The notes: a model not told the origin generated them from the letters alone. Shown: positions 1,487-1,813, numbered from the stretch's first letter. The stretch is 9,117 nt of DNA from a virus (IMGVR_UViG_2563366928_000004:1-9117), one strand, 5' to 3'. A program made the numbers and translations.

Positions 1487-1813
1487 TCAAGGACGTGACG
1501 GCGTAAAGATAAATTGTCTCTTCACTCCCTGACAGGGGCGATTCTTTTCAAATCGCCATTTCGCCATGGCCTTCACCACTTCATCACGAAACAAATTATG
1601 AGGCTCTGAGCGGAGAAAAACGATCCGTGTCACAGTCCCATCAGCACCAATATCGAACTTAACCTCAACCAGCCCCTTGATATAATTTGCTGCAGCATAT
1701 TCCGGATATCGTGGATACACCGTCACTAATTGCCGGGGCTCATCAGCTTTTTGCTGCGAGCATCCCACTGCCAGGACAGATAACAGAAAAAGTAGTAAAA
1801 GGCGTCTTTTCAT
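1487..1813 (-). CDS. Lipoprotein carrying a TonB C-terminal-like domain, 108 aa
   Basis: Start at MKRRLLLLFLLSVLAVGCSQQ: signal peptide with lipobox LAVGC and Ser at +2. RBS AGGAATAAAA before the ATG at 1813. The mature part (YPRYPEYAAANYIKGLVEVKFDIGADGTVTRIVFL...FRDEVVKAMAKWRFE) follows the TonB_C pattern (P.YP...G.V.V.F.V..DG.V.......S.....F..EV..AM..WR.E). Confidence 0.75.
   Translation of the reverse strand: MKRRLLLLFLLSVLAVGCSQQKADEPRQLVTVYPRYPEYAAANYIKGLVEVKFDIGADGTVTRIVFLRSEPHNLFRDEVVKAMAKWRFEKNRPCQGVKRQFIFTPSRP

Follow-up and report, generated by a model that had tools for sequence, protein, structure and literature searches.

The window analysed in this study, a stretch of 9,117 nucleotides of viral DNA (IMGVR_UViG_2563366928_000004:1-9117), is the late region of a lambdoid Escherichia coli prophage. 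On its minus strand, at positions 1487-1813 (ATG at 1813, stop codon at 1487-1489), lies a gene encoding a predicted lipoprotein of 108 amino acids, in which a lipoprotein signal peptide and a short tether precede a domain of the TonB_C family. The protein is identical to WP_000830178.1, annotated as 'TonB family protein', and to CPT_21_73 of phage 21. A Shine-Dalgarno sequence (AGGA, 1820-1823, minus strand) is found 7-10 nucleotides 5' of the ATG, at the same site that was marked by the annotators of phage 21. A preliminary description of this DNA had suggested that such a protein could serve as a decoy for TonB-dependent receptors.

The N-terminal part of the protein, as read from the sequence, is MKRRLLLLFLLSVLAVGC followed by SQQKADE-PRQLV. 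Its signal peptide and lipobox (1760-1813, minus strand) can be read directly: residues 1-17 comprise MKRR and a hydrophobic core, the lipobox is LAVG-C, and Cys18 (1760-1762) is followed by Ser19 at position +2. The lipoprotein signal pattern [LVI][ASTVI][GAS]C, with a residue other than Asp at +2, is found here as MKRR-LLLLFLLSVLAVG-C-S. According to the Lol sorting rule, Asp at +2 causes retention in the inner membrane. Because Ser and not Asp occupies this position, the sequence points to sorting to the outer membrane, where the protein is probably attached through its lipid. The tether between Cys18 and the domain measures only 7 residues (SQQKADE). The sole N-terminal hydrophobic segment is the cleavable lipoprotein signal peptide, and a membrane anchor of the TonB type is absent. 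The mature part contains 7.8% Pro and has neither a second hydrophobic segment nor a proline-rich rod. The anatomy given in the preliminary description, namely a signal peptide with lipobox LAVGC and Ser at +2 but without the proline-rich spacer and N-terminal transmembrane anchor of a real TonB, is thus borne out by the sequence. In all homologues examined, down to 35-45% identity, the lipobox was kept together with Ser, Thr or Ala at +2 (GC or AC followed by S, T or A). The tether is short (~7-14 residues) in most family members, in prophages as well as on chromosomes, with one exception (P0139) in which it is much longer.

The domain itself (1499-1738, minus strand) spans residues 26-105, equivalent to residues 153-232 of E. 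coli TonB, and includes the YP motif (Y36, P37) and strand beta3 (residues 94-103). Its assignment to TonB_C, also put forward in the preliminary description, is confirmed by several lines of evidence. The Pfam model PF03544 (TonB_C) matched residues 33-99 with E=7.3e-13 and 49.2 bits against a cut-off of 24.6, and the NCBIfam model tonB_Cterm (TIGR01352) reached 47.4 bits against a cut-off of 27.1. In contrast, equivalog models of full-length TonB (NCBIfam PRK10819 type) yielded 45-69 bits against cut-offs of 265-448, with the match confined to the last ~85 model positions. Among solved structures, the best matches were all to the C-terminal domain of E. coli TonB (E=1.4e-14; residues 24-103 against TonB 151-230). 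An ungapped alignment with TonB 151-230 gave 32 identical residues out of 80 (40%). By both sequence and structure, the domain is closest to genuine TonB domains of enterobacteria (36-40% identity) and not to the divergent TonB_C classes.

Structure prediction gives the same picture. An AlphaFold2 model of the 108-residue protein, built on an alignment of 30 sequences, had a mean predicted local distance difference test score (pLDDT) of 88.7, with 81 of the 108 residues at 90 or higher. Averaged over blocks of 10 residues, pLDDT was 97-98 over residues 31-100, 87 for residues 21-30 and 89 for residues 101-108. The model shows the alpha/beta fold of TonB_C, a three-stranded sheet with an exposed beta3 edge, and can be overlaid on receptor-bound TonB with a root-mean-square deviation of 1.0 Å for the complex with BtuB (2gsk_B) and 0.9 Å for that with FhuA (2grx_C). 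The top 11 fold matches in the PDB were C-terminal domains of TonB or FusB, with target-normalised template modelling (TM) scores of up to 0.92, while the viral structure library BFVD gave no match at E<=1e-3. In the published TonB-FhuA and TonB-BtuB complexes, our top structural matches, the Ton box adds a strand to the beta3 edge. The TonB residues Y163, P164, G174, F180, G186, F202, W213 and F230 are identical in the lipoprotein, and Y215 is replaced by F. Six of these positions, the aromatics Y163, F180, F202, W213, Y215 and F230, are implicated in transporter recognition; five of them are identical. Across 30 family members, P34, Y36, G47, G59, P71, F75 and W86 were invariant. The window allele also has a lone Cys at position 94 (1532-1534), at the start of beta3 (RPCQG). 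The same residue is present in the JLK-2012 form of allele 2 (RPCKG; see below) and is replaced by Arg in other variants. Such an unpaired periplasmic Cys could give rise to intermolecular disulfides.

The lipoprotein is a member of the TonB_C domain family and not a TonB, because the anchor and the spacer of TonB were looked for and are absent. It shares its fold with the C-terminal part (~150-239) of E. coli TonB (P02929), and both proteins are basic, with an isoelectric point of 9.8 for the lipoprotein and 10.4 for TonB. It differs from TonB, however, in that it lacks the N-terminal membrane anchor, the coupling to ExbB/ExbD and the proline-rich rod. Moreover, it is predicted to be lipid-anchored at the opposite, outer membrane, and it ends 5 residues after beta3, whereas TonB ends 9 residues after it.

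On the evidence of the sequences, the 108-codon open reading frame is a real gene under purifying selection and not a remnant of tonB, because its ratio of non-synonymous to synonymous substitutions (dN/dS) is low and the lipobox is conserved. Two alleles were compared that differ at 28% of their residues (72% protein identity). Between these alleles, dN/dS was 0.12 at a dS of ~1.5, and the signal peptide alone gave 0.14. Allele 1, with a protein identical to WP_000830178.1, was found in 1225 of 5426 complete E. coli genomes, including UTI89. It showed at least 99% DNA identity in 1203 of these carriers, and in 1221 of them it was counted as full-length, with no less than 80% of the gene covered. 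Allele 2 occurred in 415 further genomes of the 5426, including O157:H7 and O55:H7, and also in Stx1a phages. Together, the two alleles are present in ~30% of complete E. coli genomes. A contig of 418 bp assigned to 'Modestobacter excelsi' (NZ_SJEX01000172.1) also encodes residues 1-67 of the E. coli protein with 100% amino acid identity, which most likely reflects contamination of an actinobacterial assembly by E. coli or phage DNA.

The gene belongs to a wider family. A word-indexed homologue search returned close relatives only, nearly all from E. coli, whereas an exhaustive HMMER profile search reached 2795 TonB_C proteins at E<=1e-3, many of them with multiple repeats. The best 150 of these 2795 hits included at least 20 proteins of ~105-135 residues, most of which aligned over their full length and carried a lipobox or a plain signal peptide. 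Similarly, a first scan of viral contigs yielded almost only identical copies, and a second scan that used divergent members widened the set. In a scan of one genome per species, lipoprotein homologues with 37-49% identity were found in ordinary chromosomal settings in Klebsiella, Raoultella, Serratia, Erwinia and Pantoea. They lie beside lacI-lacZ in Klebsiella and Raoultella, near minCD in Serratia grimesii, and a few kb (~2-4 kb) from icd in Pantoea and Erwinia (L023:5971-6318 and L024:5992-6339). In E. coli, icd is the integration gene of phage 21 and e14. In Pantoea and Erwinia, the closeness of the homologue to icd may be coincidental, or it could go back to an old integration event. Two metagenomic members were also flanked by housekeeping genes. 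All sources name these homologues only 'TonB family protein'. In a neighbour-joining tree, the prophage alleles of E. coli grouped with the small lipoproteins, apart from enterobacterial TonB proper, with weak support for the deep splits.

Reading the 130 nucleotides upstream of each homologue for promoter-like signals revealed a possible clue to the regulation of the family. The consensus of the Fur box can be written as a 19-mer, GATAATGATAATCATTATC, or as a 7-1-7 palindrome, TGATAATnATTATCA. In the relatives, an extended -10 element (TGTTAGTAT or TGATAGTAT) is directly followed by a predicted Fur operator. Perfect 7-1-7 matches (14/14, TGATAAT[T/C]ATTATCA) were found in ST64B-like prophage copies (L005:327-341, L006:173-187) and nine viral contigs (L111-L119), and also upstream of two chromosomal copies, one from Klebsiella and one from Raoultella (L015:5972-5986, L016:5972-5986), in each case ~29 nucleotides 5' of the start codon. 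Three more chromosomal copies from Klebsiella and Raoultella, the copies of Serratia and Erwinia, and two metagenome contigs (L010, L013) matched at 12-13 of the 14 positions. Furthermore, 31 viral contigs of the Klebsiella phage type matched the classical 19-mer at 12-14 of 19 positions, the commonest good form being GATAATGTTGATTATCATT. Such matches were rare. In ~260 kb of loci, before the nine viral contigs were added, only four perfect 7-1-7 matches occurred, all at these upstream sites, and a score of 13/14 was reached at only 14 of 262,498 positions. Because Fur boxes precede most members, prophage copies included, we predict that iron starvation induces the lipoprotein family and that control by Fur is its ancestral state. 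The Fur operators are also the best available argument that the family represents an accessory gene expressed in lysogens, since an operator at the promoter makes sense only if a repressed prophage transcribes the gene.

The E. coli alleles depart from this pattern. In allele 2, the -10 element TGTTAGAAT is overlapped by an 8-1-8 palindrome, AGAATAAG-A-CTTATTCT (L004, ~3960-3976), while the 19-mer is matched at only 13 of 19 positions. The palindrome could be an operator of unassigned specificity or a decayed Fur site. In the window allele, a candidate extended -10 element, TGTCAGAAT (1833-1841, minus strand), is predicted from a hand alignment with TGTTAGAAT of allele 2 and with the corresponding elements of the Fur-box relatives. 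Compared to allele 2, a gap of 13 nucleotides (within 1824-1841) removes the right half of the palindrome and keeps the left half. The best Fur-box matches of the window allele reached only 10/19 and 7/14, with none within 3 mismatches near the gene. Between 1200 and 2700 on the minus strand, we found neither a two-hexamer sigma-70 promoter nor an intrinsic terminator, the stretch between Rz and the lipoprotein gene included. Because the gene lies on the same strand as the late operon without an intervening terminator, it is presumably also transcribed with the Q-antiterminated late operon, late in lytic growth. A strong promoter-like site was further noted inside the gene on the plus strand (1659-1686), antisense to it and directed towards Rz; it consists of TTAACC, a 16-nucleotide spacer and a TG-extended TATAAT, and matches at 10 of 12 positions. 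Sites of this kind were no more numerous in the region than expected by chance.

In the direction of late transcription, the window contains tRNA genes, a gene for a NanS-type esterase, the holin gene, an open reading frame of 296 codons, the lysozyme gene, Rz/Rz1, the lipoprotein gene, a small open reading frame on the plus strand, the cos region and the gene for the small terminase subunit. The lipoprotein gene lies 310 nucleotides downstream of the i-spanin gene Rz (2124-2582, minus strand), in which the o-spanin gene Rz1 is embedded (2186-2356; lipobox VVSAC, 29% Pro). As the 5' part of the small terminase gene occupies 1-495 (minus strand), the lipoprotein gene is the last gene before cos and the packaging genes. 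The preliminary description had placed the gene in the moron position after the spanins, where lambda has bor. The position after Rz/Rz1 holds, but the gene is not a replacement of bor: it lies on the strand of the late operon, unlike bor, and phage 21 contains both. In phage 21, the gene for the identical protein is preceded by bor (on the opposite strand) and an open reading frame of 45 codons, and is followed by cosQ. A non-coding block (1975-2100, minus strand) that is 83-88% identical among the window, phage 21 and JLK-2012 lies between bor and the lipoprotein gene in phage 21. The reading frame of 45 codons (1831-1968, minus strand; CPT_21_72 in phage 21) had no PHROG match and only 59% DNA identity in the context of allele 2; it is probably not a gene and was left out of the unit. 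Rfam detected no RNA family in or near the lipoprotein gene. The same slot, after the lysis genes and before the terminase on the late strand, is occupied by homologues in the Klebsiella phage ST13-OXA48phi12.4 (41% identity), in ST64B/F1055-like prophages (44% identity, directly after a DUF2514 Rz-type gene) and in JLK-2012 (after a KilA-N gene).

What might such a protein do? The short lipid tether would hold a lone TonB C-terminal domain at the periplasmic face of the outer membrane, where the Ton boxes emerge. Its exposed beta3 edge could then pair with the Ton boxes of TonB-dependent transporters (FhuA, FepA, BtuB, Cir and others) and of group B colicins. Such binding seems plausible because the fold, beta3, the YP motif and the aromatics presumably involved in recognition by TonB are kept. 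Because it has no link to ExbB/ExbD, the domain would bind but could not pull, and it would thereby cap the Ton boxes or compete for them and keep the real TonB away. Possibly, it might also form dead-end dimers with TonB itself. In a lysogen, colicins, microcins and phages that depend on TonB (T1, phi80 and many FhuA-dependent lambdoid phages) would then enter less readily, at the cost of some loss of siderophore and vitamin B12 uptake. In the relatives, Fur control would make the product appear when the TonB-dependent receptors are derepressed, like a shield raised at that moment. We infer that this elaboration of the decoy idea is the best-supported mechanism, in which Ton-box binding, the inhibitory outcome and expression in the lysogen are all putative. 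We assign a probability of roughly 0.45 to the reading that an outer-membrane-tethered, non-energised TonB_C domain competes with TonB for Ton boxes, its defensive role included.

Several published observations are consistent with this mechanism. When TonB's periplasmic domain is overexpressed, the uptake of iron through TonB-dependent transporters is inhibited in E. coli (Howard et al., 2001, as cited in PMC9841981), and a Ton-box pentapeptide reduces killing by colicins and infection by phi80 (Tuckman and Osburne, 1992, as cited in PMC9841981). The TonB fragments produced in the laboratory (Howard, Herrmann, Stratilo and Braun, 2001) likewise place a TonB C-terminal domain in the periplasm without energy coupling. 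In contrast to these engineered, soluble and overexpressed fragments, the lipoprotein is natural and phage-borne, has a predicted lipid anchor for the outer membrane and appears to be under purifying selection. The nearest functional counterparts would be the superinfection-exclusion lipoproteins Llp of T5 and Cor of phi80, N15, HK022 and mEp167. These are likewise small and phage-encoded, and from the inner leaflet of the outer membrane they inactivate the TonB-dependent receptor FhuA at its periplasmic face, blocking phages, colicin M and ferrichrome (bioRxiv 10.64898/2026.03.26.714494). Yet there is no homology: the lipoprotein matched TonB_C only in PHROG and Pfam, and no Llp or Cor structure was among the listed fold matches. 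Furthermore, Llp and Cor are specific for FhuA, whereas a Ton-box binder would in principle reach every TonB-dependent receptor. Bor of lambda (Iss family) is another small outer membrane lipoprotein encoded between Rz and cos of lambdoid phages, but it has an unrelated sequence, is encoded on the opposite strand and confers serum resistance.

Other observations weigh against Ton-box capping. Three TonB residues are replaced in the lipoprotein (Q160 by Y, R158 by T and R166 by Y), and in TonB these residues lie near, or contact, the Ton box or the cork in the complexes. The window allele has lost its Fur box and its predicted promoter is weak, which makes its expression in the lysogen uncertain. 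Chromosomal copies with predicted induction by iron starvation are hard to square with a pure inhibitor of iron uptake. No defence-system model of PADLOC matched the lipoprotein. Our full-text literature search found neither a paper on the lipoprotein nor a functional experiment, and the genome note of phage 21 does not mention it. Finally, the native receptor of phage 21 is LamB (bioRxiv 10.1101/2024.04.15.589635), which rules out that the lipoprotein protects this phage's own receptor. Because phage 21 uses LamB, any exclusion would act on other phages and not on its own kind.

The Fur link and the chromosomal members leave room for a homeostatic rather than a defensive role. The same binding to Ton boxes or TonB might serve a governor or helper of TonB-dependent transport, induced by iron starvation and derived from chromosomal genes of the Fur regulon. 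For example, it might apportion TonB among the receptors when TonB is scarce, occupy the Ton boxes of receptors that carry no ligand or keep iron overload in check, and the prophage copy would simply change the iron handling of its host. This would fit the copies in non-phage settings in Klebsiella, Raoultella, Serratia, Erwinia and Pantoea, the perfect or near-perfect Fur boxes at their promoters, and the grouping of the prophage copies with the lipoproteins instead of TonB proper, albeit with weak deep support. We know of no way, however, in which a non-energised TonB domain could aid transport. The sole experimental precedent, as far as it is described in PMC9841981, was inhibitory. Unrelated prophages (lambda-like, Stx-type, ST64B-like and Klebsiella phages) have repeatedly captured the gene at the junction of lysis and terminase genes, which is typical of lysogenic-conversion and exclusion genes, and the E. 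coli allele has dropped Fur control. We regard such a physiological role as a serious alternative, though a less probable one than the defensive role. A different partner altogether seems less likely still. The protein might be a generic periplasmic binding module for peptidoglycan, FhuD, BtuF or another outer membrane protein, with an effect on the envelope such as stability or a Bor-like serum resistance. Contacts of TonB's C-terminal domain with FhuD, BtuF and peptidoglycan have been reported. Domains of the TonB_C type are also found in many multi-domain proteins of other function (as the 2795 library hits, many multi-repeat, illustrate), the AgmX/PglI and MxcH models match weakly, and TonB Q160 and R166 are not kept. 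Yet the closest relatives are enterobacterial TonB domains, at 36-40% identity, and the predicted Fur control of the family points to the iron/TonB system.

Two further explanations, both prompted by existing annotations, are far less probable. PHROG 1267 (PHROGs v4, category 'lysis'), which carries the label 'Rz-like spanin', matched the lipoprotein over its full length with E=5e-43, and the gene follows the spanin genes on the late strand in five phage backgrounds with no terminator in between. It might therefore be an accessory of lysis, as a spanin-like component or a late protein acting at lysis. Like the o-spanins of the Rz1 type, the product is a small, predicted outer membrane lipoprotein encoded next to the lysis genes. 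However, the window already contains Rz with a genuine, proline-rich Rz1 embedded in it. The lipoprotein is a folded alpha/beta protein that is not proline-rich (7.8% Pro) and lacks a C-terminal transmembrane segment, and its gene is neither embedded in nor overlapping with Rz. Moreover, bor and the 45-codon reading frame intervene after Rz in phage 21, as does the KilA-N gene in JLK-2012, and the chromosomal homologues with Fur boxes have no lysis genes nearby. A lysis function is thus very improbable and largely refuted by the anatomy of the protein; the label of PHROG 1267 looks wrong and will propagate into phage annotations. Older annotations (ev017, Perceval and CP-933N), in turn, speak of 'partial tonB-like', 'TonB fragment' and 'truncated', as if a functionless, decaying piece of tonB had been caught by a phage, and indeed the N-terminal two thirds of TonB are absent. 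But the missing part is replaced by a signal peptide and lipobox that are conserved across genera, dN/dS is 0.12, the gene is intact in 1221 of the 1225 carriers, and the protein groups with the lipoproteins apart from TonB proper (again with weak deep support). These data on selection and conservation refute the fragment interpretation, whose remaining probability is negligible.

If Ton-box capping is correct, a broader picture can tentatively be drawn, although we hold it with less confidence than the mechanism itself. The lipoproteins may form a family that has so far gone unrecognised, namely orphan TonB C-terminal domains anchored in the outer membrane, which originally belonged to the Fur regulon of Enterobacterales. 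Lambdoid, Stx-type, ST64B-like and Klebsiella prophages would have captured these genes repeatedly together with the promoter, and the products would act as universal Ton-box caps. A phage would then disarm a machine of its host by presenting a copy of that machine's docking domain which is disconnected from the rest. This would represent a new class of exclusion or tolerance that mimics the host transducer and shuts all TonB-dependent gateways at once, instead of one receptor as Cor and Llp do. The gateways concerned would be those of phages, group B colicins and siderophore-microcins, and possibly of sideromycin antibiotics. Many coliphages enter mainly through TonB-dependent receptors, as do group B colicins, microcins and siderophore-antibiotic conjugates. 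A capping gene in ~30% of complete E. coli genomes could affect host range in phage therapy, the way in which gut bacteria compete by means of bacteriocins, the acquisition of iron during infection and how susceptible cells are to Trojan-horse antibiotics. The gene is common and conserved, and the proposed mechanism is concrete and easily testable, with ecological as well as clinical angles; the predicted Fur control in the relatives offers a simple condition under which to seek a phenotype. The gene is already present and annotated in the databases, whereas its family context, predicted Fur control and likely function appear to be unreported in the literature that we searched. The labels 'TonB family protein', 'partial TonB' and 'Rz-like spanin' are all misleading and can be corrected.

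Some other features of the window deserve mention. The reading frame between the holin and lysozyme genes (3649-4539, minus strand) encodes an intact protein of 296 amino acids that matches phrog_1085 from end to end (E=2e-189), a PHROG of unknown function. In RefSeq, the annotation covers no more than the first third of this frame and calls it a truncated 'YdfR family' pseudogene. At one edge of the window lies a truncated DNA methyltransferase gene (8601-8879, minus strand), and in a matching genome an IS1 element is found just beyond this edge. Because of this truncated gene and the IS1 element, the early and Q side of the prophage appears to be disrupted, while the TonB_C gene is intact. 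Upstream of the gene for the NanS-type esterase (5461-7437), the small RNA STnc100 (131 bits) adjoins a cluster of three tRNA genes (Arg-TCT, Arg-TCG and a tRNA with CAT anticodon, annotated as Ile by RefSeq), with iraM on the opposite strand; this region comprises the segments 8044-8233 and 8311-8560 on the minus strand and 7683-8018 on the plus strand.

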